From Candidatus Freyarchaeum deiterrae (GTDB taxonomy: Archaea; Asgardarchaeota; Jordiarchaeia; Jordiarchaeales; Jordiarchaeaceae), in the NCBI GenBank assembly GCA_037305845.1, contig CP147778.1, forward strand, positions 1,824,001-1,888,000: a stretch of DNA of 64,000 nt, in the 5' to 3' direction. Under the pieces are notes generated by a model. That model did no database searches. It saw only the letters and a program-made list of their open reading frames with translations, and was not told where the DNA came from. Shown one piece after another: positions 1-29,884 of this stretch; position 1 is the first letter of the stretch, and every line of letters starts with the position of its first letter. The position numbers and the translations under genes were made by a program.

Positions 1-3000
1 AGCAGTGTGCAGTGGAGAGTGTACATGATTGCGGATGAAACTACTGGGCGGTGGGAGATACCTTATGGCTACAGTGATATTTGGAATGATACCACTCCTG
101 TTGGTGGCGACACATACACGGCTAATTGGAACACCACTGCTCTGAATGTGAGCGAGTGGCAGACTCATCGTTACGTGGTGGTGTTTAGGGCCACGGATAA
201 TAATACTGTTCCCAGCACTGTTTACCGTAATGTTACTGTTGTCGTGGATAATGATAATCCGAATATTATTAGTGGCCCCAATATCGTTGCTTCGAATAAT
301 GTAGAGGAGGGGTTCAGTTATAACGAGGCTGGTACTGTTATTTACACAAAGTGTGATACCGCTAGCTTGACCTTTGCGGTTAGTGATTTTAGATCGAGTT
401 TGTTTTATGATATCGAGCATAATTGGAGTCGGGCTAATCTGGAGGCTTATCTAGGTTGTTTGAACATCACAGTACTTGACGAGTACGAGGATGGAAGTAG
501 ACTTTACTCGGATTATATTATGGTTGAGGGTTCTGGAAGCTTTTTCCTAGAAATCGATAACTATGCCTTGATTAACGGAACGCATAATCTCACGATTACT
601 GCGAATGACTTGGCTGGGAACATGAATCAGAGCATCCGAAAGATTGACGTGGTGGTGGATAAGACTCCGCCGATTGTAATCCCTATTCTGCCGAGAAACG
701 GGATGTGGCTCAAACGTATTATAAGTGCCAACTGGCTTCTAGAGCCTATTCTGAACCTTTACAGTTGGCTCTCTAGTCTATTAGATGAAGGAGAGCGTAC
801 ACCCAGCTGGGAAGAAGGTGTTCTCTTCGGTGTGTATGTCGACGACCTTGATTCTCCAGTTTTAACCAATGCTATCTGGTTGGACCTGTCTAATCGTCCA
901 GGACTACACTTCACAATGTCACCCGATTACCATCAATATATGGGTATGTTTGATGAGCTTCCTGAACAATGGATTATATATGATATGTTCAGTATGATAA
1001 ATAAGGAAGGTAGTGAGGATATCTTTTCTTCACTTCTTGCAGGCAGTGGGTATACTGATTTAGGTCTCATAAAATTTAAAGAATTGTACGGTGATAATGT
1101 TTTCTGGTACGGTGCGTATTTCACACCCCTTGATTTCTTCTTTAACATTTGGAGCCTTAGTTGTCTCAATCCTACTACTTTTACGTGTAAATTCACGGCT
1201 TGGGATAAAGCGGGCAATATTGGAACCGTTTATTCCACGTTTGGCATTATTCCATACTCTGATAAATATTCTCTTCATTTTCAAGGATCAGATAATTATT
1301 ATTATGGATGTGCTTCATTTGCTGCTTACGTTCAAATGATTCAACAAGAAATTGAGAGCGCGCACCTGCGGGGAAACGGAACCAGTCAGGGGGGCTCTGC
1401 CCGAGGTGTAGACGAGTCTGGTTCCGAGCTGGTCTTCAATGGACTTGCCCCTATGGGTGTTTCCGAGAAGAGTGCTTCTAGTTTTGGCCTCTTTTCTAGT
1501 GATTATGATGTTTGTGGAGGAACTGGTGAGGGTGGTAATGAAAGTGGTGGAGAACCTCTTGAGAACCCAGTTACCGTGGAGCAGGCTTTGAATTACGAGT
1601 TCTCCGAGGATGTCTCTTTCCTTCCCTGGATGAAGATGTCGTTCCGAGTCTTTGGGTCTCCTCGGGATATTAGTTTGAACGTGAAGTTCGGTGTTGCTCC
1701 GTATATTCGATTGTTCTTTGATCCGTTGAGCTTTGAGCAGTATGGAAGCAAGGAGGACAGTGCGCTTCTACGCTCTACTCCTGACACTTGGAACACTTTC
1801 ACGATACCCTTGTACCGCATGGCTAAGGAGCTGGGCTTGTTTAATGGTTTTAACGCTCCTACTAACATCAGCACGATTAGTGTTAGTGCTTATGGTGAGC
1901 GTAAGACTTGGGAGAGTTGGGCGATTTTCGATAACTTCTGGGTGGCGACGCCGGTTCCTCTGGTTGAGGATTACGCGGAAAAGGCGGCTCTCTCCCGCGA
2001 CAACTACTACAAGATTCTCAACGTTACTAAGGAGAGTAATTTTGAGCTTTTGAAGCAGGACATTTCTGAGATTTTTGCGGCGAGCTACATGGGTGACTTT
2101 GAGTACTTGGCGGAGGTTCTGGGGATTTTCACTCAGCACCTGTTTCCATCGGGCGAGATGGCGGAGTTCACGGACGCCTCTGTCCGAGTCATAAGCTATA
2201 ATAACAGTTTGAATGAAAGCGTGCCCCTGTTCGTGTTATACAGCTTCCCAGGAGGTTTGGAGAACGTTTCCTTCTTAGCCGCCTATAACTATACTAATAT
2301 TCCGAATTTGGATCTTTCGCGAGAGGCGGTACTTAACGCTAACCTCACGCAATTGTGTCAACTGCTGGCTCGGGGCGGAGGTGTGCTTACGCCTTATGGT
2401 TTAAGTGACCAAGATTTGGCGTATCTGCCGTATGGTACGGCGAGCTTCGTTATAATTAATGATACGGTTTGTATTGACCGTTTGAGCGCCAAGCCGTGCA
2501 CCATCCAGAGCGTGCTGGCTACCATTGCCAGTATTGCGGAGAGGGTGTGGAATCACAAGTGTGTGGCTCAGGTTGTGGAGCAGGAGGAGGAGGCTCAGGA
2601 GATTGGGTCTCTGAGAGCGTTCATTAACGAGGAGGCTTATCGGGTTGATACGTTCAATAAGTTGCTGGCGGCTTTGCAGTGGGTTAACTACATGCACCCG
2701 TATAACTGGGACAAGAAGAGCTTTGATGTTCTCCTCGACCCTGTTAATAGCCCTTACTGGCTCTCCTACACTTATGCGGCTTGGGGTAACGAGACTGGGT
2801 ATGAGCGGCTGAGCGAGTGTCTGGCTAATATTACTCAGATGCTGGATTTTGGCGATTACTTCGGAGCTCCGCCGGTGTTCATCACTTCTGGTGAGTATAA
2901 CCGTACCGCGGGTGCGGCGGGGGAGAAATGTGTGCTTATCTATAAGGCTCTAGAGAGGGATGCAAGCTGGAATTATCTATTGGGTGCGGTTCAGGGTGAG

Positions 3001-6000
3001 ATTTTGTGTGCTATATTTAATGACACTGATGTTTTGAATGTGGCTAGGGAGTTCGGGAGGCGGGTGAACTCCACACTGGCGGATGTTTACGTTTACCTCG
3101 CGGAAATGGCTTTCATGTATACCAGACCCTACAACACAGAGGATATACTCGGTAGTCCTGTTTCTGAAAATATACAAGCATTGTTCAGCGGGTCTCTTGG
3201 AGGAGTCGAACAGATTCTCAGTAACATAGGGGAGTTTGCTGATAACCTTACTATGCTTCCCTTCCTTAATCTTAAGAATACATTGGACATTATGTTCATG
3301 CAAAAACTCAACAAACAATTGGCAATTTTGGGCGTGGGTATGGGTTTGGGACCAACGGGGTTTAAAGACGTCATAGATAGGTTAGGGGATGAAGAAACAT
3401 CTAAGGCAAGTTCGGTTTACTCTTCAGAAGAAGACTATATTATAGACCCTGAGTTACTTTCAGTTTCTTGCCCACTAATTCCAATGCCTTCGGAATCATT
3501 TCTCTATGAAAGCTCAGAATCACACTGGAGATCGGTAATAGATAATCCGTATACCAATTTTCTATTACCTGATATGGTGGAATACGCTAAGAAAGTGAAT
3601 GTGAATCTTCCAGAGGGACAGAAGAAGGGAATAATCAGCCCTATAATAAATACGGCTTTACAAACTTTTGGATTGGAGAGTGGGTCGATAGGCTCAGTTA
3701 TGCTTAGACTATTTGCAGCAGGACGATGGCCTGTGGGCCAACCCCTTAAAATATTCATTGACCAGAAAATTGCGGACTATATGAATTTACCTAAAACGAC
3801 CGACCTAAAAGTAGCTGACTACTGGTTTGAGAAGCTAATCGACGCTTCGCCTTGGTACTTGGATTTGACAACAGGCTTACTCGAGATGCTGGATGATTAT
3901 GAGAACCCGGCGGGTACAGTATACTGGGGAGTTGATGTTTTTAGCTCAATTCTTGTTCCTGCAGGGAGTGGTGGAGCGTTTCTCAAAGTTAGTGTTTCCA
4001 TCAAGAACGATCCTGGTACTTGCAACGGGAGATTAGCGTATCTAAGCATGAGAGATGGTGAGGGGAAATTGATTCTTAGTAACGAGAGGCTGGTATCGAT
4101 GGGATGGGGGATACTGAAAAACCACGACCTGCCCGACGGCGACGGTGTAGGGCAGCTCTGGCATAATGATAATGTTGAACTGTTTATTGATAGAAATACT
4201 GGGAGGATAACGAAGTACATGGTTCAAGATATGACTACTCTGAAAAACCCAGACTTGGATGAAGGCTTTGCTAATGGTCAGCGTTACGGTGCGGATAACA
4301 TGGATAGGGTGATCATTGATATACCTCAAGAAGGTGGTGAAGAGATGGTTGATTGTGATGTAACAAATCGCGAGTGGATGGGAAGCGCAAAGACTGGTTG
4401 CGGTATGACTCATATGTGCTTCGTTTTCAAAAATTTGGATAGGATTAACCCAGTTCAAACTATCTCCGGTGAAGATAAAGTATCTGGTATCCATAGATCT
4501 CTTTGGAAATCGAGAATAGCCTATGAAAAGGAGACAGGAGGATATAAAAACAGGCCGATGCAACAAGAAATTCCTGATGCCCCTGAATTTCAGTATTATC
4601 CTATTTTAAGATATTTAATACGTGATTTAGGTCTGTCATACGCTGAACCAATTTACAGAATGCGTATTGAAAATACTCCTGCATCTGATAAATCGGTACC
4701 ACAGATAAATAGTATCTTAGAATTATTTGATGTGGCTGCGCGTATGCCTCTGGATTGGGCTGTCATTAAAGATTTTGTGCACCATAACTTCATGGAACTA
4801 GAGTTGGACGTTATGACAAGTCCAGATAGAATAATTAGTGAGCGAACAAGCTATCTTTCACTGTTCCATGAGGCTCTACTAGATTACGATGGCAAGAAGG
4901 TCTTTGTTAGCCGAATTATGGATCTCCTTCTTTTATCTTACACTCATTGTCTCTTCGGAACCAGCCATGCTAACACCGAATACTTTGTTATTCCTGAGAA
5001 TACGATTAAGGAACAGCCTAAAGATGGCCTAGGAAACATAATACCTACGAGCGAGTGGGATCATAGTAAGAAATCCCTAGCAATATTCCTAGACCAAATG
5101 CCCTACCCCTCACAGCCCAAAGTTTCTCTAATAGCCATACCTGTATTCAAAGAGGGGGCGGGAATAACACAGCTTACTCCCATCGACAAGATATTTGAAC
5201 GCCAGCATAAACAGCCGAGTCCAGCTATCCCTATTGAAAATAAAGAGGAACTTGTGTATGGTAATGTGGAATATTACCTGTTATATCATTATGTTCCCAG
5301 TGACGTAGAGAATCCCTACAAACCTTACTCAAACATTGTAAATCCCAGTACAAACATTTTTGCTCCGGATGATCTAAAATTGGGAGACATGAACGAAATA
5401 ATCAAGTTCCTCAGAATCATGCAAAGGATATGTCAATTAACCGGTAGCTACGGTAGACCGGGCCAAGAGAATTACGATCGTTCCACTGCAGCGTTCCTAA
5501 AACAACTGGAGGGGTTGATGATGAATTATCAGGAGGCTGGTTTAAAAATATTCGAGGCGCTGGGTGGATTTGAGGCCATGGATAAGATGCGGGAATTTTA
5601 TCCACTCCACCCACTGACAAATACGCAACAACAAGGGCTAATCATGGTCAAGGACATGTTCAGTGACCTCTTCGATATTATAAATAGTAAGACGGCTACA
5701 GAACAAGAAAAAGCAGCTGCGCAAGGCCTTCTAAAGTCTCGTAAGGAAAGTTACCCTGAGGCTTGGGCTTTTTATGAAATTCTACCCGAAACTGATTGGA
5801 TTCCTACTGATATTAACGGTTTTATATTCCTTCTTTCAATTATAGGAGCTGAAAGAGTTGGAGGGAACATCTATATTCCAATGAAGTGGCATGAATCCAA
5901 TAACTTCTTCGCCTTCTCAACTGAGGATAAAGTAGGAGAAAATGAAAAAGGAGTGGCTACATTTAACCCCGATGAGTTTGTTGAAAAATTAAATAAATTA

Positions 6001-7953
6001 GGTACACCTATGAAAATTAAGCTGGTTAACGGAGAAATGGTGAGATATAAAGATGGCAGATGCCAGTTAGAGCCTTTCAAAGATGAGTTGGGCAATAAAA
6101 AAACGTTTGGTCTGCTTACCCCTGAGGAGCGTAGTCAGGTAGTTGCCATAAATCTTGAAACGAATGTTGACCCGTATCTTATTAGGAATGCTTTCGGAAA
6201 TAAGATAATGGTAAATGATAGGTTGCTGGTGGAGACTCCACAGGGTACTGACCCAATGAAGAACTGTCTTGAATGGTATAAGGCTGTTACGAAGTGTGAA
6301 TCGATTCGTACAGGAGGGCGACCTGCGGCTTTATACGCTTGTTGGAAATTTATTGCTGGAGAGTATTATGATTTAGAATTAGATATTGTAAAAGATAATC
6401 AGTTTAAACTTGAACTTCTTGATTACGCTATTGAAAAGTTCCACAAGTTGATTCCTGTAGAAATTCTTAAGATGTGGGAACTTCACACCGAATCGCATAA
6501 AGAGTTAAATGTTCTCCGCTCGGTTCTTCAGCTTTTTATTATAATTGATGCTACTGGTGCTAGTACTGAAGCTGGTGTCACACAAGATTTCGGTCAGCGA
6601 CGTGGAAGCCCTAAGGTGGATACCTTTTATATTAATCTTATAAATAAACTGACTGACGTAGTTAAGAGTGGTAATGTTTACGAGATTACGGGGCTCATCT
6701 TTACAGATGCCTTGATTTTTATGGCAAATGAACTGCAGAAGAACCCGAACACTGCATTTCAAGCCTTTATGCTTCACAATATTATCAAGTTGGGAAGCGT
6801 TGCGAGCGCTATTGAATCTCTACGACCTGAGAATGTTCTACACGGTGGGGCTATGACGCTTTGGAGTATCCAACTTTCTAAGATTATGACGGAGAAAATT
6901 GCAATGGCTTCAGAAAACCTAAAGAAATACAGTTCCGTAGAAACCGTCAAATCTCTATACGGTCAGGAACTCGTTGCTATGCTCAAGTACGAAGGATGTA
7001 ACGAAGCACAAATATCATACATCACGGGGTTCACGTTGGCAGAGGTAAACCAGTTTGTGCAGGAATGGAAGATTCGCTGTGATAAGGAAAATATAGAGGA
7101 AAGAATGGCGCAGGAAATATTTGTATCTGTGATTGATAAGGTCTGTCAGGTTGCAAACCTTAAGTTCACCGATAAGTTCAAATTCCAGTTGATAGCGGGA
7201 GGTAGCTTGACTCTCAACTCTCTTTACATGGCTGGAAAAAACGTGGTTCCCTTCCTCATGATATTCGCTCCTATTATGCAGGTAATCGGCTACACTGCTG
7301 TCAGCTGGTTTGAAGGTCGGTCAATCTCTCTTCTGCCCGTTTTCGGTAACGACTCTCTCTTTGGTGGGGCGGTAACCCGATGGTGCTTGGATCCCACTCA
7401 GAATATGCTCACCTCTATTCTGATGGGGTTCGCCGTGGAATTGACCGATTACATGGAGTTTGGGGCTGAGGGGAGTCCTTTCGCTGGAAAAAGCTTCGAA
7501 AAGTTGGGCAAAATCATAGACATGGACTATATTAACGTTATTTTGACTGGCTGTCAGGGTGGTATGATTAATCTTGGTTTGAGCTACGTTTCTGGGGATA
7601 CTATAGCTGACCTTATGAAGCCTCTTTTTGGTGTTGTGGGTATCGTTTCTATGATTCCTCAGGTTGATCAGTTCTACAAGACCTGCATCTGGCCCATCGC
7701 CAAATTTACACTAGGAGCCGCACTCATGGGTGGAATTAAACCTATCGTGGGGAGCGCCATCGCTAACGTGGCTGCAATTAACGCCATTAACGCTGCTGAA
7801 AATGCCTTCATGAACAGCGTGTTTGGCACAGGACTTTTTGATGACGTAACCTTTGATTTTAGCGCTTTTACTGATTATCTTCCAGGTTTCGGCTGGGGTG
7901 ACTACGATTACATTTCAAACTATATCACCCACTATATGTACGGGGTCTGGTAG
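1..7953 (+). CDS. Giant (>2648 aa) putative surface/secreted protein, 5'-truncated by the window; Ig-like repeats at the N-terminus, hydrophobic helical C-terminus
   Basis: Frame is open from base 1. Motifs LTITANDLAGN...VVVDKTPP and FTAWDKAGN resemble Ig-like/Big domains, there are many N-x-S/T sequons, and the last ~250 aa contain several hydrophobic segments. Confidence 0.7.
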   Translation, partial: SSVQWRVYMIADETTGRWEIPYGYSDIWNDTTPVGGDTYTANWNTTALNVSEWQTHRYVVVFRATDNNTVPSTVYRNVTVVVDNDNPNIISGPNIVASNNVEEGFSYNEAGTVIYTKCDTASLTFAVSDFRSSLFYDIEHNWSRANLEAYLGCLNITVLDEYEDGSRLYSDYIMVEGSGSFFLEIDNYALINGTHNLTITANDLAGNMNQSIRKIDVVVDKTPPIVIPILPRNGMWLKRIISANWLLEPILNLYSWLSSLLDEGERTPSWEEGVLFGVYVDDLDSPVLTNAIWLDLSNRPGLHFTMSPDYHQYMGMFDELPEQWIIYDMFSMINKEGSEDIFSSLLAGSGYTDLGLIKFKELYGDNVFWYGAYFTPLDFFFNIWSLSCLNPTTFTCKFTAWDKAGNIGTVYSTFGIIPYSDKYSLHFQGSDNYYYGCASFAAYVQMIQQEIESAHLRGNGTSQGGSARGVDESGSELVFNGLAPMGVSEKSASSFGLFSSDYDVCGGTGEGGNESGGEPLENPVTVEQALNYEFSEDVSFLPWMKMSFRVFGSPRDISLNVKFGVAPYIRLFFDPLSFEQYGSKEDSALLRSTPDTWNTFTIPLYRMAKELGLFNGFNAPTNISTISVSAYGERKTWESWAIFDNFWVATPVPLVEDYAEKAALSRDNYYKILNVTKESNFELLKQDISEIFAASYMGDFEYLAEVLGIFTQHLFPSGEMAEFTDASVRVISYNNSLNESVPLFVLYSFPGGLENVSFLAAYNYTNIPNLDLSREAVLNANLTQLCQLLARGGGVLTPYGLSDQDLAYLPYGTASFVIINDTVCIDRLSAKPCTIQSVLATIASIAERVWNHKCVAQVVEQEEEAQEIGSLRAFINEEAYRVDTFNKLLAALQWVNYMHPYNWDKKSFDVLLDPVNSPYWLSYTYAAWGNETGYERLSECLANITQMLDFGDYFGAPPVFITSGEYNRTAGAAGEKCVLIYKALERDASWNYLLGAVQGEILCAIFNDTDVLNVAREFGRRVNSTLADVYVYLAEMAFMYTRPYNTEDILGSPVSENIQALFSGSLGGVEQILSNIGEFADNLTMLPFLNLKNTLDIMFMQKLNKQLAILGVGMGLGPTGFKDVIDRLGDEETSKASSVYSSEEDYIIDPELLSVSCPLIPMPSESFLYESSESHWRSVIDNPYTNFLLPDMVEYAKKVNVNLPEGQKKGIISPIINTALQTFGLESGSIGSVMLRLFAAGRWPVGQPLKIFIDQKIADYMNLPKTTDLKVADYWFEKLIDASPWYLDLTTGLLEMLDDYENPAGTVYWGVDVFSSILVPAGSGGAFLKVSVSIKNDPGTCNGRLAYLSMRDGEGKLILSNERLVSMGWGILKNHDLPDGDGVGQLWHNDNVELFIDRNTGRITKYMVQDMTTLKNPDLDEGFANGQRYGADNMDRVIIDIPQEGGEEMVDCDVTNREWMGSAKTGCGMTHMCFVFKNLDRINPVQTISGEDKVSGIHRSLWKSRIAYEKETGGYKNRPMQQEIPDAPEFQYYPILRYLIRDLGLSYAEPIYRMRIENTPASDKSVPQINSILELFDVAARMPLDWAVIKDFVHHNFMELELDVMTSPDRIISERTSYLSLFHEALLDYDGKKVFVSRIMDLLLLSYTHCLFGTSHANTEYFVIPENTIKEQPKDGLGNIIPTSEWDHSKKSLAIFLDQMPYPSQPKVSLIAIPVFKEGAGITQLTPIDKIFERQHKQPSPAIPIENKEELVYGNVEYYLLYHYVPSDVENPYKPYSNIVNPSTNIFAPDDLKLGDMNEIIKFLRIMQRICQLTGSYGRPGQENYDRSTAAFLKQLEGLMMNYQEAGLKIFEALGGFEAMDKMREFYPLHPLTNTQQQGLIMVKDMFSDLFDIINSKTATEQEKAAAQGLLKSRKESYPEAWAFYEILPETDWIPTDINGFIFLLSIIGAERVGGNIYIPMKWHESNNFFAFSTEDKVGENEKGVATFNPDEFVEKLNKLGTPMKIKLVNGEMVRYKDGRCQLEPFKDELGNKKTFGLLTPEERSQVVAINLETNVDPYLIRNAFGNKIMVNDRLLVETPQGTDPMKNCLEWYKAVTKCESIRTGGRPAALYACWKFIAGEYYDLELDIVKDNQFKLELLDYAIEKFHKLIPVEILKMWELHTESHKELNVLRSVLQLFIIIDATGASTEAGVTQDFGQRRGSPKVDTFYINLINKLTDVVKSGNVYEITGLIFTDALIFMANELQKNPNTAFQAFMLHNIIKLGSVASAIESLRPENVLHGGAMTLWSIQLSKIMTEKIAMASENLKKYSSVETVKSLYGQELVAMLKYEGCNEAQISYITGFTLAEVNQFVQEWKIRCDKENIEERMAQEIFVSVIDKVCQVANLKFTDKFKFQLIAGGSLTLNSLYMAGKNVVPFLMIFAPIMQVIGYTAVSWFEGRSISLLPVFGNDSLFGGAVTRWCLDPTQNMLTSILMGFAVELTDYMEFGAEGSPFAGKSFEKLGKIIDMDYINVILTGCQGGMINLGLSYVSGDTIADLMKPLFGVVGIVSMIPQVDQFYKTCIWPIAKFTLGAALMGGIKPIVGSAIANVAAINAINAAENAFMNSVFGTGLFDDVTFDFSAFTDYLPGFGWGDYDYISNYITHYMYGVW

Positions 7954-8070
7954 TCGCAGTGACTGTGAGCCCCATAATGTTTTTTTAATTTTCAGGGATT
8001 TTTGGTGTACTTAGCTCTCAATATGGTGATGGTGAATTGAGTAATCAGCGGCTTTTTATTCCGAGAGAAC

Positions 8071-9237
8071 CTATGTTTTTTCGATTTGTCGTATGGCTTT
8101 TCTTATGGCTTCTGCCATGGTTACGTGGGATTCAGTTTCTTCTTCTTTCTTGAAGGTTTGTTGTGCGTAGGGTATGTCTGGGTTGTACTTTCCTTCTGGT
8201 GTTTCTCTGTATTCTTTCCCTAGGAGTTCTTCTAATGGTTCCAGTGCTCTCTGGTCTCCTATGTTTCCGAGAGCTTCTACGACCTTTATTCGAACGTCGC
8301 TTTTTTCTTCCTTTATAGCAAGTTTTATGAGTGAGTTTACCGCTCTTGGGTCTTTTGTTTTTCCTAGGGCTGTTGCTGCTTCTTTTCTAATGTCACTGTC
8401 TTCATCTTTTAGTGTTTGTATTAGTGGTTCCACCGCCCGCGGGTCTCCTATGTTTCCTAGGGCTGTTGCTGCTTCTTTTCTAACATCGTTCTGTAAGTCA
8501 TCCAGTGTTTGTATTAGTGGTTCCACCGCCCGCGGGTCTCCTATCTTTCCGAGCGCCCGCGCTGCCCCCTCTCGCAATTCTGAACTCCAGTTTCTTAGTG
8601 CCTGTATTAGTGGTTCCACAGTACGGGTGTCTTTTATCTGTCCGAGAGCTATTGCTGTTGCTTTTAAGGCAGATTCATCATAATCCTCTTTTAGTGCCTG
8701 TATTAGTGGTTCTACTGCTCTTTCATCTCCAATAATTCCAAGAGCAATTGCTACTGTCATTCTGACTAAGGGGTCTTCATCTTTTAGTGTTTGTATTAGT
8801 GGTTCTACTGCTCTTCGGTCGTTTATCTTTCCGAGTGCCCGTGCTGCCGCTATTCGAGCACTAGAATCTTTGTCTTTTAGTGTTTGTATTAGTGGTTCCA
8901 CGGCGTTCACGTCTCGTTCATCTCCTATCTTTCCGATGGTCGCTGCTGCGTTTGCCCTTACACCACCATGTTCATCTTTTAGTGCCTGTATTAGTGGTTC
9001 AATTGCTCTCCTTTCCCCAATCTCTCCAAGTGCCCACGCTGCTGCATTCCTAACATCTCCGTTTTTGTCTTTTAGTGTTTGTATTAGTGGTTCTACTGCT
9101 CTCTGGTCGCGTATGTTTCCAAGAGCAACTGCTGCTCTCCTTCGGGCGGTCGGTTCTTTATCTTTTAGTTCCTGTATGTGTTTTTCTACCGCTTTGTTTT
9201 CTTCTGTTTCTTCTGTGTTTTTCAAGGTGTTTGCCAC
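8071..9237 (-). CDS. HEAT/PBS-lyase repeat protein
   Basis: About 10 repeats of ~31 aa ([21 protein letters not shown]), also visible as ~93-bp DNA repeats. Confidence 0.9.
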
Positions 9238-9335
9238 TTCTACTTACGCCGTTTGTTTTTAGCTTGGCATCACTATAAAATATGTATGCCCTTAGTATAA
9301 ATACACTTGTTTTCTATGATGCTGCTGATTGTACG

Positions 9336-9446
9336 TCTGGGTTCAGCAGGGTTAGGAGTGATAACATGGTAGCCGTATGGGAACCGGTGACTAGATTACC
9401 CCCATAGAAAATAATGGCTTATAGTTAGTCCAGCTTGTGTGCATAC
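9336..9446 (+). repeat. Degenerate copy of the 16S rRNA 3' end plus trailer (copy 1)
   Basis: GTGATAACATGGTAGCCGTATGGGAACCGGTGACTAGATTACCCCC resembles the archaeal 16S terminus GTCGTAACAAGGTAGCCGTAGGGGAACCTGCGGCTGGATCACCTCCT. It is followed by the core GGCTTATAGTTAGTCCAGCTTGTG (9416-9439). Confidence 0.8.
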
Positions 9447-9818
9447 GCGTTCGTTTGGGTTTTCATTTACGGATTAGTATCGTTTTCTATTTTTGGTGAA
9501 CGATTGTTTTGTTTTTCAATTTTTGGAGGTTAGATGTTTTTCTATAAAATTGTAGACTCGCCTCAGGTGAACCAGTTTTGCAAGGGGCGTGTCTGACCGA
9601 TTGTGGAGCTTTCTATAGGCGCACAACTGATGGGTGGTGTAAAACTGGTTATTCAGAGTGCTTTTACTAATTGTATAGCTATAAATGCTGGAGTGGTTGA
9701 GCATAATTCTTGAATTCGCTGTGGGAGGCGCCAGCGTTTAGTGGCGTTACTGTTTCCACATTGATGGAGTATATTTCAATGAGCGGCTAGTACGACTACC
9801 TTTGTATTCTGTTACCTG

Positions 9819-10292
9819 TTATTTTATTAAAATCTGAAAAAGAGTACTCACTCTATCAACAAAATTTCGGGTTAATAATAGCACTTTTTCTATTGGTCTT
9901 TTGTTGGAGGATATTATTATTCTCTTTTTTAAACTAAATTCTTTACTGCGTCTTCCGATATGCTCTAAAATTACCGAATATAATGGGGGGTATAAATTAG
10001 GTAATTCGCTCTTAGATATTATGTTGATTTCAGGATACGTATTCTGAATTTTTTGTTGCGCAAGTTTTTTTTCTTCGTCGTCCATTACTACTAATATTCT
10101 CTTCGCATCTTTGTTTCCACTTTTTTCGAACAACTTTTCTGCTGCTTGAGTGTACCTGTTCCTGTTTCTTTCATATTCGAAACGTATTAAGCCGGAATAA
10201 GATGTAGCATCCGTTCTCTTATTAAATTCTAATACTTCAACATATCCTCCAGAAATAAACGCCAGATACATTTTCGTTTCATAGTGGTCCAA
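9819..10292 (-). CDS. Hypothetical protein
   Basis: 157-aa ORF in an AT-rich segment between repeat copies 1 and 2; no recognised motif. Confidence 0.55.
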   Translation of the reverse strand: MDHYETKMYLAFISGGYVEVLEFNKRTDATSYSGLIRFEYERNRNRYTQAAEKLFEKSGNKDAKRILVVMDDEEKKLAQQKIQNTYPEINIISKSELPNLYPPLYSVILEHIGRRSKEFSLKKRIIISSNKRPIEKVLLLTRNFVDRVSTLFQILIK

Positions 10293-10686
10293 TGATTCTA
10301 TTTTAGTTCATCTCCTGATAATTTTTTTGCGATTATATTAATATGAAATTATGAATATATAAGGAGCTACGAACTTACATCATACCCCTATGTTGTTGAA
10401 AATTTGTACCCTATCCTACCCCTATTATGGTAATTCTGGACTGCCTTGGTCTTCGTGGTCAAACATTAGTATCGTTTCCAGAAATTCGGTGGCGCGGAGT
10501 GCGGCTTTTCTGTTTGTGATGAGCTGTTTTTTCATCTGGTGTCCCTTCCTTCCTCTTATAATTGGAATAATGGTTTAAATATGCCTCGGAATTCTTATCT
10601 GAGTTAGGGTCTTAATAAAGAAATAAATTTTTCTTGTAAATAAAAAACTTGTTATATTTGTGAGGTTTCGTATGCATTTCTTTCTT

Positions 10687-10741
10687 TCACCTCCTTCGAG
10701 CAAAACGGGCTTATAGTTAGTCCAGCTTGTGCGTATATGGG
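10687..10741 (+). repeat. 16S rRNA 3'-terminus fragment plus trailer (copy 2)
   Basis: TCACCTCCTTCGA (anti-SD) followed by GGCTTATAGTTAGTCCAGCTTGTG (10708-10731). Confidence 0.8.
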
Positions 10742-11031
10742 TTTTTGGGCTTTCTTTTGTTCTATTGTTTTTTTCTTTAATGGGTTTGTTTGTGTGGTCT
10801 GTTGCAGTGTTTGTCTTTGAGCTTTCTTTTATTCTCTTTCTATAATCTTTTTTTAAGTCTCAGTGCGCACCTTAAAGTGATCTAAATTATTCCCAACAAA
10901 TTCTCCAAGTGTTACTTAGCCTCATCTCTACAATTCATCTAATTCTTTTAAAAAATACAAAAGAGAGAATTCTTTAAAAAAATTGAGCGGGAAGCAAAAT
11001 TTTTATACTATGTGAAATAAATTTAGAAAGC

Positions 11032-11994
11032 ATGATGAAAGTTCCGGCGAGAAAGGGAGCGGTAAAAGTAATATTATTGGCAGTGGTTCTCCTCACAGCA
11101 ACAATCACGTTTCTCTCAATCCAAAACCAAAATACGTGTCCTCTCGTCAATGCATACCTGCAAGACATCTTCCCAGGTTCTCCCACCATCATTCAAGAAA
11201 AGACTATTAACATATCTTCTGACTACACGTTTAATGGAGACTTCTATGAAACGATAAATGTGGCTGCGGACAACATAGTGATAGACGGGAACGGATACAC
11301 TGTGCAAGGCAATGGATCTGGTTACGGCTTCTACTTAGGTGGCAGAAGCAACGTGACCATCAAGAATGCCATAGTCAAAGGGTGGCAATGCGGCTTCTGC
11401 TTAGAATATAGCTCGTACAATACTCTTTCGGATAACACCGCAATCAATAACACTAATTATGGCTTCAATCTGTACCATAGCTCGTACAATACTCTTTCGG
11501 GTAACACCGCAAACAACAACGGCTGGGGCGGCGGCTGGGGCGGCTTCCATTTGGATAGTTACAGTTCGTACAACAATCTTTCGGGCAACACAGCCACAAA
11601 CAACCCCCAAGGCTTCGAACTGTACTATTACTCGGACCACAACAATCTTTTGAGTAATACCGCTTCATACAACGGCTGGGGCTTCTACCTAGACAGTAGC
11701 TCTTACAACACTCTTAGGGGTAACACCATCATAATCATCTACTCTGGCAACGACATCCGCCAAAACCTAGGCTCACACGACAACATTCTTATGGGTAATA
11801 CAGTCATTTCCACCTCCTTACCTTTTTCATTATATAGCTTGTTTTACTCTTATCAGGCGGCGCAATCTACTTCAAATATGAATAGTGAATTTTTATTGGC
11901 GATAGTTCTTGTCGTATGCTTAGCGTTTGTCTATAAGATGATGAAGAGTGCCGCCAAGGCCAGGAGCAAGCCCGGAGCCAAACCCAAACGATGA
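11032..11994 (+). CDS. Membrane-anchored parallel beta-helix (NosD/CASH-like) surface protein
   Basis: N-terminal signal/TM segment, IVIDGNGYTV motif, repeated 'SSYNTLSGNTA.NN..GF.L' units, C-terminal TM helix with a basic tail. Confidence 0.85.
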   Translation: MMKVPARKGAVKVILLAVVLLTATITFLSIQNQNTCPLVNAYLQDIFPGSPTIIQEKTINISSDYTFNGDFYETINVAADNIVIDGNGYTVQGNGSGYGFYLGGRSNVTIKNAIVKGWQCGFCLEYSSYNTLSDNTAINNTNYGFNLYHSSYNTLSGNTANNNGWGGGWGGFHLDSYSSYNNLSGNTATNNPQGFELYYYSDHNNLLSNTASYNGWGFYLDSSSYNTLRGNTIIIIYSGNDIRQNLGSHDNILMGNTVISTSLPFSLYSLFYSYQAAQSTSNMNSEFLLAIVLVVCLAFVYKMMKSAAKARSKPGAKPKR

Positions 11995-12138
11995 AAGTCA
12001 CTATCCTAGTGGCTCGTCTCACTGATTCTAGAGTTGAACTTAATATGTATACGCTCATTTTTTACTCATCATTTAGGATACTGCTGAAGATACCTTTGAT
12101 CTTATAATCCATATTGTACATTTTTTCTGTTTTAAATT

Positions 12139-12202
12139 CGGCTGGATCACCTCCTTCGAAAAAAATGGCTTATAGTAAGTCCAGCTTGTGCGTAAATGGG
12201 TT
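12139..12202 (+). repeat. 16S rRNA 3'-terminus fragment plus trailer (copy 3)
   Basis: Exact CGGCTGGATCACCTCCT with no 16S body upstream, then GGCTTATAGTAAGTCCAGCTTGTG (12167-12190). Confidence 0.85.
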
Positions 12203-12760
12203 TAATGAGCGTTAAACTAATTTTGGTTTTACAAGAGTTTGATTTTGCAGTTTACAGCACTTGTCTTTTGTTCTGTTTTTTTACCATATAATATATGAAC
12301 TTCAAAATACGAACTTCAGGTGCGAATAGACAGAACTTAAAACTGGAATAAGAAGATGCTACTGCAATAAGTGGCGGTCGCGAATTAGAATTATTATCAG
12401 CGATAACTGGTTTACTCTAGTTGGAGGATAATTTAGCGAATTCGTTTGTTGCAATATTTTACTGTGCTCGTCATGTTGTTTCAATCTGTCTAAAATTGGT
12501 TTAACTTTATCAATAAATTTATTTATACATGTGTAAATTCTGAAACTTCTTGAATCCTAGCAATCATAGAGCACGATACCAAAAGCTTAAAAATGTGGAG
12601 TAGATTTAAACTTATGGCAATAATCCTTGTGTTTGATATTGTAAAACACTATAATTGCTCAATTATTTGGATGCACCCCAGGAACCAAAGTTAAGTTTCT
12701 GGGCGAAGGGCGTAGTGAATTTAAGGCTCTGGGTCTTAAATCATGATGATCGCTATGCAA

Positions 12761-12796
12761 AGGCTTTATTCTTACAGACGCCAATCAGTGGGCATT
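12761..12796 (+). other. 5' strand of the 23S pre-rRNA processing stem (BHB-like); pairs with 15894-15929
   Basis: AGGCTTTAT-T-CTTACAGA and TCAGTGGGCATT pair with AATGTCCACTGG and TCTGTAAG-ATAAAGCCT, with an imperfect central helix and bulges between them. Confidence 0.8.
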
Positions 12797-12803
12797 AAGT
12801 AAG

Positions 12804-15887
<3,084 letters not shown>

Positions 15888-16114
15888 TGGAAAAATGTCC
15901 ACTGGTGCGAAATCTGTAAGATAAAGCCTAAATTAATTACTATTTTTGAGCAATGGATCTGTTAAATTAAACTGTAAGACAAATATTTTATCATATTTCT
16001 ATTTCTGTGGAGGGCCTTTCTGACCGAAAGTTTCAATAGTTTGCTATGTTTTTTTTATTGTGGCCCGCCTTCGAGAACTATCCGACCTTATTTTTGTAAA
16101 ATGGAATGAAGCGT

Positions 16115-16360
16115 AGGGCAAGAGGTTGGGCTACAATTCTCGCCGCGAGATACCTATTCGACGGGCTTCTTCAGGATTGTGGCGCTTGCCTTTTAGATGA
16201 TTGGGGAGCCAACCCAGATAGGTTACAGCGGTTTGGGAGCTGCCGGAGATTCCCTGGTATGAGAGAACACAGCTGAGGGACGAGCAAGTCGCTCCATCCT
16301 AGGATGCTGTGCGTTAGTATTTTCAGGGTACACGGCGTCTCCAACTATCCCCTTTTCTAA
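16115..16360 (+). ncRNA. Candidate structured non-coding RNA of unknown family
   Basis: GC-richer island with many nested helices, e.g. 16130-16140/16173-16183 (11 bp) and 16115-16122/16185-16192 (8 bp). G-U pairs favour the + strand. Confidence 0.55.
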
Positions 16361-16582
16361 TCCACAAACTCTCCCCTGCATTTTTATGTGGAGTACTATA
16401 TTAATAGCAGGGTTGAATAACGCGGAGCAAATAGCTTTTCCTGAAAACTCTCTGTATCTTTTTTTTCAAATATTTAATTCTTTTATATTTAGGGTCAATA
16501 AAAATATATAAATACTTTAAAGAAAAATTAATAAGTTGTTTCTGCCTTTTTAAAATGGCGTGAGTTGATTTAGATTTTAAAT

Positions 16583-17383
16583 GTGCATGCGGTGAATTTC
16601 TTGAAGACGCAAAAAGACTCTCAAGCAGATGATGAAAAACTTGTAATACTTGACATAGACGGTACTTTAGGTTTATCACTTATTCCAGAGGAAGAAGCAA
16701 TAAGGAGAATTTTTCGATTGGTTTGCCTTGAAGCTAACAAGGGTTGTGATTCGAAAATTAGCGAGGAAGAAGTAGAAAATTTTTACAAACAGGCAAAAAA
16801 GGAACACTATGAACTGTATCCACTCAAGCCAAAGAGACATAACAAAAGGTTAAGATTGAGAATATTTCTCAACAAAGTACAGGAGCATAATGGGGTAAGA
16901 TTCGGCTCAAGTTTCCTCAATAAACTTCATAAATTTTATTGGGATTATTTTGTAGCTCACGCTAAACCATACCCTGATACATGTAAAACGCTTGAAGAGT
17001 TGATGAAGAAATCAATAGTAGTTATCGCTACTAATAATGAGGACAAAGAAACTGAAATAAAAACGAAGTTATTTGGACTTGAGGCGGGAAAACACTACAG
17101 ATACTTATTTTCTTCAGAACAGTTAGGTGTATGTAAACCAGCACCGGAATTCATTGAAAAATTAATTCACCTATTAGAAGAGGATTTGGGTCAGCAAGTT
17201 TCTTGCAAAAGAGTTTTTGTTGTGGGCGATGATCCAAGTAAGGATTTTGCTTGGGCGAAATCCATTGGGGCTATTACAATACGCATAAAAAAGGATTTAC
17301 ACGCTGACAGAGAACCAAATAATGAGGAAGAGAAACCAGACTATACGGTAGACAACATCTCAGAAATTTTAGACATAATCTAA
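16583..17383 (+). CDS. HAD-superfamily hydrolase
   Basis: ILDIDGTL motif I, ATNN, KP, and VVGDDPSKD motif IV. Confidence 0.9.
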   Translation: MHAVNFLKTQKDSQADDEKLVILDIDGTLGLSLIPEEEAIRRIFRLVCLEANKGCDSKISEEEVENFYKQAKKEHYELYPLKPKRHNKRLRLRIFLNKVQEHNGVRFGSSFLNKLHKFYWDYFVAHAKPYPDTCKTLEELMKKSIVVIATNNEDKETEIKTKLFGLEAGKHYRYLFSSEQLGVCKPAPEFIEKLIHLLEEDLGQQVSCKRVFVVGDDPSKDFAWAKSIGAITIRIKKDLHADREPNNEEEKPDYTVDNISEILDII

Positions 17384-17560
17384 AAATTTAGCGGTTTACT
17401 TAATGATCATCATTCGCTTTAGATCAAGTGAATCATTCTTTTTTATTTGCATTATTTCTCATTTAATATTAGCGAAATACTTTTATGAAAAAACGGCGGA
17501 ATTATCAAATAAGTCTTTCTACCTTTACTGCAAAAATAGCACTAGTTTGAAGGTGTTTCC

Positions 17561-18517
17561 ATGGTTCAAGTGGTTAGTATGGGCGCCATAAACTATGATA
17601 TCAATCTTTTTATAGAAAGCTTTCCCAAAACAGGAGAAGAGGTGCCGGTAAAGGGGATAACACGTATTCCCGGAGGAAAGGGCGCTAATGTTGCTGTGGC
17701 AGCTGCGAGAGTTTCGGCTCCCGGCGAGGTTGCCTTTATAGGAGGATTGGGTGATGACCAGATAGCCGAGATGCAGAAAGAAGTTTTGAATAATGAGGGG
17801 GTTGATATCAGTGGAATTATAACGGTTAAGGGTGCGGAATCAGGACAAGCCTATATTGTAATTGATTCAAAGGGTGAGAATGTTATTCACACGCTTTTCG
17901 GTGCAAATCATGAAATTTCGCCAAAGGAAATAGAAGAAGAGGGTAGATTAGCACTGATACGTGAAGCTAAGGTTCTCGCCATAGTCGACCCCCCACTTCC
18001 AGTTGTTAAGAACGTTATGGCGCTGGGAAAGAGGTTCGGGGCTATTAACATCTGGGACCCCGGGATACACTGTACAAAAAAATATGATTCTCTAAAAGAT
18101 ATTTTAAAATTTGTTGATATTCTTTTGGTGAACGCTGTCGAAGTTGAAAACTTAACCGGCTTCAGCGAACCAGAGGAAGTGAGAAAACGTCTTTCTCCGA
18201 TTAATAAGACTTTAACTGTCATCAAGAAAATGGGAGCAGAAGGTTCCCAGTTGATTGAGCCAGGAGATAAACCATTTGCCCTAATAAAGGGAATTCCACT
18301 CCAAAAATACGGTTTCAAAGTGCTTAATACGGTAGGCTGCGGCGACGCTTTCCATGGCGTACTTGCAAGTTCAATGGCTCAAGGATACTCTCTTACTGAG
18401 GCTTTACAAAGAGCAAACCTAGCGGGAGCGTTCAAAGCAACTAGAAGTGAAACAAGGGGAAGCCCAACCAAAGAAGAATTGGAAAAGTTCTCTAAAAAAA
18501 TTAAAAACGGCTTTTGA
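17561..18517 (+). CDS. rbsK: Ribokinase / PfkB-family carbohydrate kinase
   Basis: PGGKGANVAVAAAR and NTVGCGDAF signatures. Confidence 0.85.
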   Translation: MVQVVSMGAINYDINLFIESFPKTGEEVPVKGITRIPGGKGANVAVAAARVSAPGEVAFIGGLGDDQIAEMQKEVLNNEGVDISGIITVKGAESGQAYIVIDSKGENVIHTLFGANHEISPKEIEEEGRLALIREAKVLAIVDPPLPVVKNVMALGKRFGAINIWDPGIHCTKKYDSLKDILKFVDILLVNAVEVENLTGFSEPEEVRKRLSPINKTLTVIKKMGAEGSQLIEPGDKPFALIKGIPLQKYGFKVLNTVGCGDAFHGVLASSMAQGYSLTEALQRANLAGAFKATRSETRGSPTKEELEKFSKKIKNGF

Positions 18518-29759: not shown

Positions 29760-29884
29760 CCCGCAGTAACTCAGACTGGCTAGAGTGCCCGGCTGTAGAG
29801 TTGCACTTGTCAGTGTGACTATTCCCAGTAGGCACTCGCACAGACACCGGGACGTCGCAAGTTCAAATCTTGCCTGCGGGACCA
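29760..29884 (+). tRNA. tRNA-Tyr(GTA) with a 47-nt intron at 37/38 (29799-29845); CCA encoded
   Basis: Acceptor CCCGCAG/CTGCGGG, anticodon GTA at 29795-29797, BHB CTGT-AG^A / ACAG-AC^A, T-loop GTTCAAATC. Confidence 0.95.

Follow-up and report, generated by a model that had tools for sequence, protein, structure and literature searches.

Genomic islands at the 3' ends of transfer RNA (tRNA) and transfer-messenger RNA (tmRNA) genes have attL and attR ends with a displaced 3' fragment of the gene, and archaea have integrases of the SSV and pNOB8 types that belong to such systems. Integrons and integrase-less attC clusters (CALINs) have been reported also in archaea, and homing-endonuclease genes flanked by a duplicated 3' part of their host gene are known from organelles and phages. 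The processing stems of archaeal precursor ribosomal RNA (pre-rRNA) carry bulge-helix-bulge (BHB) sites, and circular pre-16S molecules occur as intermediates. Here we describe a locus that touches on all of these systems. It lies in a window of 64,000 nt, the whole stretch of DNA that was analysed (genome positions 1824001-1888000), from the complete 3,576,204-bp genome of the Asgard archaeon Freyarchaeum deiterrae. Three orphan copies of the 16S rRNA tail, here called c1, c2 and c3, lie in this window ahead of the 23S rRNA gene. We find that the 16S tail and its processing-stem strand mark the joints of the DNA that separates 16S from 23S.

As in the tRNA and tmRNA islands, direct repeats of an RNA-gene 3' end bound accessory blocks, the gene itself is intact, and the blocks form multi-block arrays. 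Unlike in those islands, the target in F. deiterrae is an rRNA tail plus a stem strand, no integrase lies in or near the array, at least two of the genes in between come from native families, and population data reveal no excision (PMC11529989). Short repeats that separate single-gene blocks of ~1.3 kb (c1-c2-c3) recall integrons and CALINs, but the F. deiterrae locus has neither IntI nor an attC-like hairpin, its genes lie in mixed orientations, and one 'cassette' would measure 26.6 kb. A spare host-gene 3' end downstream of the live one is also seen in homing-endonuclease duplications; the F. deiterrae interval, however, holds no endonuclease gene or relic, whereas the corresponding region of Atabeyarchaeia-1 has one. 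The long leader-trailer stem with a canonical 3-4-3 BHB site agrees with other archaeal pre-rRNAs, but where these have one leader and one trailer, F. deiterrae has one leader and four trailers, three of them geneless. Finally, unlinked 16S and 23S genes are prevalent in Asgard archaea, and the frequency of unlinking has been called unclear (Juttner and Ferreira-Cerca 2022, PMC8997704; citing Brewer et al. 2020). F. deiterrae shares with these genomes a separation of tens of kb and the need for separate promoters. While that work records the unlinked state, here the joints are marked by tail copies, and close relatives span 1.4-30 kb. Limited full-text literature searches returned no description of trailer-marked rRNA joints.

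The sole 16S gene of the genome (genome 1804896-1806517) lies on the same strand as the 23S gene; its 3' end is 17.5 kb before the start of the window and 30.3 kb from 23S. An earlier note, made from the letters of the window, had reported three 16S tail copies, the last ~600 bp ahead of 23S, and no 16S body. All of this was confirmed: Rfam called no 16S in the 64-kb window, and 23S starts 613 nt past the core of c3. The same note had asked whether the true 16S trailer carries the 24-nt core shared by the copies and whether 16S lies at an unrelated site. The core is present behind the true 16S (trailer T0), 12 nt past the mature end, and 16S belongs to the same locus. Relatives and loci are referred to below by labels, with G for genomes (among them G001, a member of the genus) and L for loci, including those on metagenome contigs. 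The main features, in window positions, are:

9340-9523, plus strand: orphan c1, with a decayed 16S 3' end of ~70-95 nt, a 24-nt core free of changes and a distal trailer that is decayed as well; BHB central helix broken; extent from nhmmer
9416-9439, plus strand: core of c1, 24/24 identical to T0
10687-10821, plus strand: orphan c2, with the last 12 nt of 16S and ~120-135 nt of trailer; BHB strand intact
12139-12237, plus strand: orphan c3, with the exact last 17 nt of 16S and a trailer with one core change; BHB strand intact
12500-12802, plus strand: conserved block upstream of 23S (also in G004, L094 and G001); it contains TATA-like boxes and, at 12688-12810, the 5' strand of the 23S processing stem
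12803-15888, plus strand: 23S rRNA gene, full length (Rfam, 2826 bits)

When both strands of the genome were searched for the core with up to 5 mismatches, only four sites were found, namely T0 and window positions 9416, 10708 and 12167. All four are on one strand and confined to the 16S-23S interval. This genome-wide count excludes a chance origin of the copies. The cores at 9416-9439 and 10708-10731 are exact, and that at 12167-12190 differs by a single change. The anti-Shine-Dalgarno sequence is degenerate in c1 but exact in the other two orphans, as the earlier note had described. An nhmmer profile of true 16S ends and trailers, built from four genomes, was used to define the extents of the copies, which turned out wider than first given. 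Across the whole genome it recovered T0, c1 (E-value 5e-17), c2 (3e-15) and c3 (2e-14) and no fifth place. The genome thus has four trailer strands for one leader helix strand. The orphans are cut at different points inside 16S (c1 at about -70, perhaps -95; c2 at -12; c3 at -17), and all continue into T-rich trailer. Direct repeats made of the 3' part of 16S bound the intervening DNA, as they would around an integrative element. No Rfam family matched the orphans or the conserved region upstream of 16S. Misassembly was rejected, given repeats of 60-185 nt with unique flanks and the long-read validation of the published genome (PMC11291895), which was also the assembly check called for by the earlier note.

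The sequence of the true trailer, together with its fold, supports the suggestion that the repeated core is a strand of the processing stem. The 16S leader carries a strand complementary to the core, and leader and trailer fold into a long stem (-52.5 kcal/mol for the proximal part). From the gene outward, this stem consists of a 6-bp and a 3-bp helix with small bulges, an 11-bp helix, the BHB site (a 4-bp helix between bulges of 3 nt in the leader and 3 nt in the trailer) and a distal helix. On the trailer side, the core spans everything from the first helix up to and including the 11-bp helix, the portion predicted to remain on pre-16S after cleavage. Each orphan is predicted to pair with the leader over the proximal stem (c2 -54.8, c3 -51.8 and c1 -42.8 kcal/mol). 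A canonical BHB can be formed with the leader by T0, c2 and c3, and its central helix is broken in c1 and in the orphan of the relative L074. One metagenome contig, L049 (Ga0124943_1036376, 1017 nt), from a relative 95% identical in 16S, spans from a 16S 3' end to a 16S 5' end. It begins with the 3' end of 16S and the trailer as far as the strand of the 11-bp helix; after 7 nt come the helix strand of the leader and the 5' end of 16S. The 7-nt link equals the junction of 4 + 3 nt predicted for BHB cleavage and ligation; a tandem 16S arrangement is an alternative reading of this contig.

The three orphans differ in their state of preservation. Orphan c2 is 95% identical to T0 over ~116-135 nt, which points to a recent copy or to recent homogenisation. 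Orphan c3 sits ~270 nt ahead of the conserved 23S block, at the head of a ~600-nt spacer, and in its distal stem the pairing with the 16S leader is no worse than in T0. It is probably the original 16S tail, left at the head of the old spacer once DNA had separated it from 16S. Two TATA-like boxes at ~12500-12700 and the neighbouring blocks are conserved also in relatives with a compact operon; because of this, 23S seems to have a promoter of its own even where it is linked to 16S. In F. deiterrae, 23S transcription is predicted to begin near 12590-12630. Orphan c1 is the copy nearest 16S and the most decayed. It and the L074 orphan have the same left end, and a GG-to-TT change and a motif of the right arm occur in both, so that c1 seems to belong to an old orphan lineage common to relatives. 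Since c1 is nearest 16S and yet oldest, a simple series of insertions at the 16S end is contradicted. With recognisable rRNA that has no gene body and, in the former helix 45, decays by substitutions and indels without compensation, c1 and the orphans of L074 and G002 can be classed, from their sequences, with truncated rRNA pseudogenes.

Orphan c1 has no counterpart of a 32-nt insert in the helix-45 loop of the live 16S (L001 3069-3100). This insert lies beside the conserved dimethyl-adenosine site, is absent from every relative searched, and its fold contains no offset-bulge motif. A second insert of the live 16S, 93 nt near model position 245 (L001 ~1769-1861), is shared by G002.

The preservation of the core is uneven in the extreme. 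On either side of the c1 core, the 16S part and the right arm resemble the true sequence at only ~50-70%, and at the substitution rate of these flanks an exact core would be expected with P ~1e-6 to 1e-4. In L074, 41 letters of the orphan, from the anti-Shine-Dalgarno sequence through the 11-bp helix, are identical to its own trailer, while the flanks are ~70-84% alike. Every orphan bears the species-specific arm version of its own genome, unpaired letters included. In both long orphans (c1 and L074), identity stops within 1 nt past the 11-bp helix strand, where the BHB central helix starts. Exact patches between decayed flanks are not accounted for by neutral decay, under which they would have P ~1e-6 to 1e-3. 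Three explanations are left: crossovers at that position, the copying of short patches from the live trailer, or selection on the pairing with the leader. Identity at the unpaired letters favours copying, and the age of the orphans favours function. A typing of trailer right arms into two types, which would have indicated reciprocal exchange, was dropped as these arms are T-rich and all pairs score alike; a few shared right-arm motifs are kept as hints only.

To place these copies in context, we compared the interval among relatives. An exact-core scan of metagenome contigs gave no match. A looser pattern gave 50 loci in these contigs, of which only L049, L074, L094 and L095 are relevant. On genome contigs, a pattern that proved too loose gave 120 matches, nearly all due to chance and the sole relevant one in a known Jordarchaeia metagenome-assembled genome. 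Most matches to a 16-nt pattern in the genus were coincidences in coding sequence.

Both rRNA genes retain conserved immediate flanks, as judged by the regions upstream of 16S and 23S in relatives. The 16S gene lies in a conserved place beside a Hel308-type helicase gene and a multi-intron tRNA, as in two relatives. The Hel308-tRNA-16S order is the same in L094 (helicase 71% identical). In L074 the tRNA region is common (83% nucleotide identity), and a module of a giant-protein C-terminus and a HEAT gene stands between tRNA and 16S. The tRNA-like gene was recognised by eye at L001 ~725-893 (genome ~1804120-1804288), 600 nt upstream of 16S; it has three insertions and an encoded CCA end, and neither ARAGORN nor Rfam (E<=1) called it. 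The 83% identity with L074 extends over 590 nt around this gene, and in L094 the equivalent position holds a 134-nt tRNA called by Rfam. The 23S gene, for its part, retains its conserved upstream block, and the interior between the two rRNA genes is accessory DNA bounded by tail copies.

The length of the interval varies within the genus. It measures 1384 nt in L094 and 2742 nt, with a scaffold gap, in G004 (the Jordarchaeia genome), with one trailer in each. These are two assemblies of one related species, 99% identical in the 16S 5' part, and yet their spacers agree only over ~72 nt directly behind 16S and ~480 nt directly ahead of 23S. Between these ends the sequences are unrelated, with ~2.2 kb in G004 (contig C44) and 0.84 kb in L094. 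Replacement of the spacer middle between relatives 99% alike marks the site just behind the stem as a hot spot of turnover. In L074, whose 16S 5' part is 94% identical to that of F. deiterrae, 16S is followed at 2.5 kb by an orphan, and a HEAT/Arm gene occupies the DNA between the two. In G002, the orphan is preceded by a giant-protein-like C-terminus and a HEAT-like gene. These two orphans have in common an A-to-G change and a 5-nt insertion in what was the helix-45 loop. With hosts only ~91% alike over the 5' part of 16S, the long orphan looks old and inherited.

L074 is instructive in another respect. There, the tRNA is followed by a remnant of the giant-gene C-terminus, the orthologous HEAT gene and then a complete 16S that has its promoter and leader, while the corresponding giant and HEAT pair of F. 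deiterrae precedes c1 instead of a full 16S. The simplest link between the two layouts would be an ancestor in which 16S units were duplicated, followed by deletions that differed between the two lines, in what may have been a history of several steps. With a full 16S at the position of c1, whole-unit duplication and deletion would also have taken part. The comparison among relatives thus bears out the compact one-trailer state in one species and the presence of orphans in two further relatives, but the L074 layout does not fit the simple serial insertion that the earlier note had envisaged.

Elsewhere in the Asgard archaea, the 16S-23S distance ranges from 165 nt to 72 kb in the other genomes searched, or the genes lie on separate contigs, in agreement with the published prevalence of unlinked genes (PMC8997704). 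In Atabeyarchaeia-1 the 16S 3' end and trailer occur a second time, 1 kb behind the first copy, and a frameshifted LAGLIDADG gene separates the two. The 23S gene of this genome lies another 2.8 kb downstream, beyond intervening protein genes. In positions of locus L023, the relevant features are:

1587-2830 (genome 450886-452129): whole region, with a ~165-nt insert in the helix-45 5' strand of 16S, the true 3' end and trailer, the LAGLIDADG gene and the second tail copy
2043-2378 and 2418-2726: two-motif LAGLIDADG gene, whose frame ends inside the second, slightly mutated tail copy

The genes between the copies are listed below in window positions. The earlier note had counted one credible gene per interval, which holds for c2-c3 but not for c1-c2.

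1-7953, plus strand: last 2650 codons of a 7241-aa open reading frame (ORF) that begins 13.8 kb before the window; DUF2341 and Ig-like matches only; largest part of the block between T0 and c1
8071-9237, minus strand: HEAT/PBS-lyase-repeat gene, 388 aa (HEAT_2, E 8.5e-85), directly ahead of c1
9819-10292, minus strand: 157-aa ORF of doubtful reality, between c1 and c2
11032-11994, plus strand: NosD/right-handed beta-helix surface protein, 320 aa, with N- and C-terminal hydrophobic segments, between c2 and c3

The T0-c1 block measures 26.6 kb and contains a 469-aa gene of secreted type (minus strand), a 200-aa ORF, the 7241-aa ORF and the HEAT-repeat gene. Beyond the window the giant ORF occupies positions 4228-18000 of locus L002. 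Its Ig-like matches are weak, and its GC content is 0.47, at the upper end of the range of the blocks (0.32-0.47, genome 0.41). Its orthologue in G001 is 72% identical over 900 aa and has the HEAT neighbour as well. The C-terminal ~110 aa of the giant ORF recur on many proteins of the genus. The HEAT gene ahead of c1 is 53% identical to the HEAT gene that precedes the full 16S in L074; no significant homology was found between the HEAT-c1 spacer and the HEAT-16S spacer of L074. The 157-aa ORF has no Pfam family and no homologue in 40 relatives or among 5.8 billion proteins. The beta-helix family has 93 matches in the F. deiterrae genome and a full-length relative in G001. On this homology, at least two of the intervening genes come from native families, the beta-helix family being multicopy and the giant and HEAT genes having orthologues in the genus.

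A HEAT/Arm gene stands directly upstream of every long orphan and of the full 16S of L074. These neighbours, three of which adjoin the C-terminal module of the giant protein, are found at:

window 8071-9237
L008 1019-2245
L074 1067-1723 and 4693-5946

On contig C204 of G001 (L041 4880-5700), a frame resembling an IS630 transposase adjoins the orthologous HEAT gene, at the place where F. deiterrae has c1. As for tRNA genes, a search with ARAGORN only called none in the interval; this program also missed the multi-intron tRNA upstream of 16S. Downstream of the 23S gene, Rfam calls a tRNA at window 29760-29881 (122 nt, 48 bits) that is longer than an intron-less gene would be.

From the copies, their extents and pairing potential, the synteny and the state of the relatives, we infer a mechanism, an order and direction of events and a homogenisation of the arm, to which we give about even chances of being right. 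The orphans would be scars of duplicative host recombination at the tail of the 16S unit, with exchange among the copies keeping the arm identical. The starting state would have had 16S abutting c3, ahead of the ~600-nt spacer and the 23S promoter and leader block. DNA would then have entered or been reshuffled just behind the stem several times. Each event would have kept a complete tail on 16S and left a spare tail downstream, the repeated unit being at most the final ~70-95 nt of 16S, the complete 3' strand of the processing stem (with the trailer half of the BHB) and the T-rich stretch. The outcome would be the present 30.3 kb between the rRNA genes, filled with the genes for the giant surface protein, HEAT and beta-helix proteins and with ORFans, and 16S and 23S would now need separate transcription. 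Host recombination of a homologous or illegitimate type, which would also have duplicated and partly deleted whole 16S units, would be the agent rather than an element-borne integrase. Exchange between copies would keep the 24-nt arm that pairs with the single leader identical, while the remainder decays. A tail duplication of similar kind in Atabeyarchaeia-1 supports this history.

Several observations weigh against it. A 24-nt exact patch within flanks of 50-70% identity is an unlikely product of ordinary homologous conversion, and the identity of both the c1 and the L074 orphan ends within 1 nt of one stem position. The old orphan lineage of L074 and G002 is only ~15% decayed, which would fit constraint or mobility better than neutral scars. 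The direction is not fixed either, as compact spacers could come from deletion between tail repeats. Moreover, no recombination intermediate or population variant was seen, the published study (PMC11529989) included.

An exact core between diverged arms resembles attL and attR, the copies are all in direct orientation and confined to the 16S-23S interval, orphans with common derived features sit in different contexts in relatives, and spacer content is swapped between the near-identical L094 and G004. These features would suit site-specific integrative elements, with the trailer core as att site, the blocks as elements or cassettes, and the recombinase lost or acting in trans. However, Pfam scans of the interval ORFs revealed no recombinase (serine recombinases were not searched six-frame), in agreement with the earlier note, which had seen no integrase. 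The only tyrosine recombinase (PF00589) of the genome lies at 3.475 Mb, 1.6 Mb off, and neither the interval scans nor this search found an IntI integrase, accompanied by attI and Pc, at the end of the array. The interval holds nothing else that is mobile, and at least two of its genes are native. The repeats do not fold like attC sites of integrons: no attC-like hairpin was found in them (z-scores of 0 to +1.3), and when c1-c3 and the bottom strand of c2 were folded as DNA the z-scores ranged from -1.1 to +1.3. Among the viral contigs of IMG/VR none carries the trailer motif (28 matches, all chance). A study of the same populations described the coverage of this genome as even, discerned no integrated element in it and did not mention the rRNA (PMC11529989). 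We consider this explanation unlikely. The earlier note had read the 16S tail as a recurrent integration site and the blocks as a cassette-like array that pushed 16S away from 23S. Of this, the tail and stem as a recurrent site of joints, and the 30.3 kb of accessory DNA bounded by tail copies, stand; integration by mobile elements and the cassette-like array are not supported, and the simple serial order is contradicted, given that c1 is the most decayed copy.

Alternatively, the spare trailers could be functional and under selection, as helpers of leader pairing, decoys or alternative partners, or as terminators or insulators. The core is exact and the flanks are decayed in two genomes, all copies are predicted to form the full proximal stem (-43 to -55 kcal/mol, compared with -52.5 for the true trailer), the arm versions are species-specific per genome, and the orphan lineage is old and little decayed. 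On the other hand, function is disfavoured by the lack of a common promoter (signals ahead of the long orphans are inconsistent), by the uncompensated decay of the former helix-45 hairpin and by relatives with compact spacers that have no orphan. The BHB central helix is also broken in the two long orphans, and the identity that reaches unpaired bulge letters points to copying over independent selection. Selected function thus appears improbable. The specific form of it in which the spare trailers are working parts, transcribed alone and pairing in trans with the pre-16S leader over the 24-nt arm, is a distinctly long shot. If true, they would serve as a chaperone, decoy or timing device in the maturation of the small-subunit rRNA, an archaeal counterpart in logic of the pairing between eukaryotic U3 and the 5' external spacer, and the two long orphans, which have the arm but no cleavable BHB helix, would be its purest form.

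Quite improbable, too, is the view that all orphans are relics of extra whole 16S genes, left by 5' deletions after at least two complete units had once existed. It would account for the giant C-terminus and HEAT gene that precede a full 16S with promoter and leader in L074 and c1 in F. deiterrae, and for orphans that all retain the 3' end of the unit but vary in their 5' cut. But L074 has a long orphan besides its full 16S, and c1 resembles that orphan in its left end and right-arm motif. Furthermore, c2 and c3 keep only 12-17 nt of 16S, and no orphan is preceded by a relic of a leader or promoter.

Finally, an intron-borne homing endonuclease of LAGLIDADG type, breaking DNA near helix 45 so that illegitimate repair duplicated the 3' exon and trailer, is very unlikely to have made the orphans: Atabeyarchaeia-1 does have its frameshifted LAGLIDADG gene exactly between two tail copies, with the frame ending in the second, and the live 16S of F. 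deiterrae has the 32-nt helix-45 loop insert, but the interval holds no trace of LAGLIDADG (PF14528 six-frame and tblastn with the Atabeyarchaeia ORFs), the rest of the genome gives only sub-threshold matches, and the left ends of the orphans (-12, -17 and ~-70) do not match the insert site.

How and how often rRNA operons split is an acknowledged open point (PMC8997704) that bears on the interpretation of linked rDNA in eukaryotes. In F. deiterrae and its relatives the joints are still legible: within one genus the interval goes from 1.4 kb to 30 kb, with a copy of the 16S tail and arm at each joint, which makes unlinking traceable as a stepwise event at a defined site. A concrete puzzle is why exactness is confined to the leader-pairing arm. 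The DNA just behind the pre-16S stem would also be a preferred place for the gain and exchange of accessory genes without a visible recombinase.

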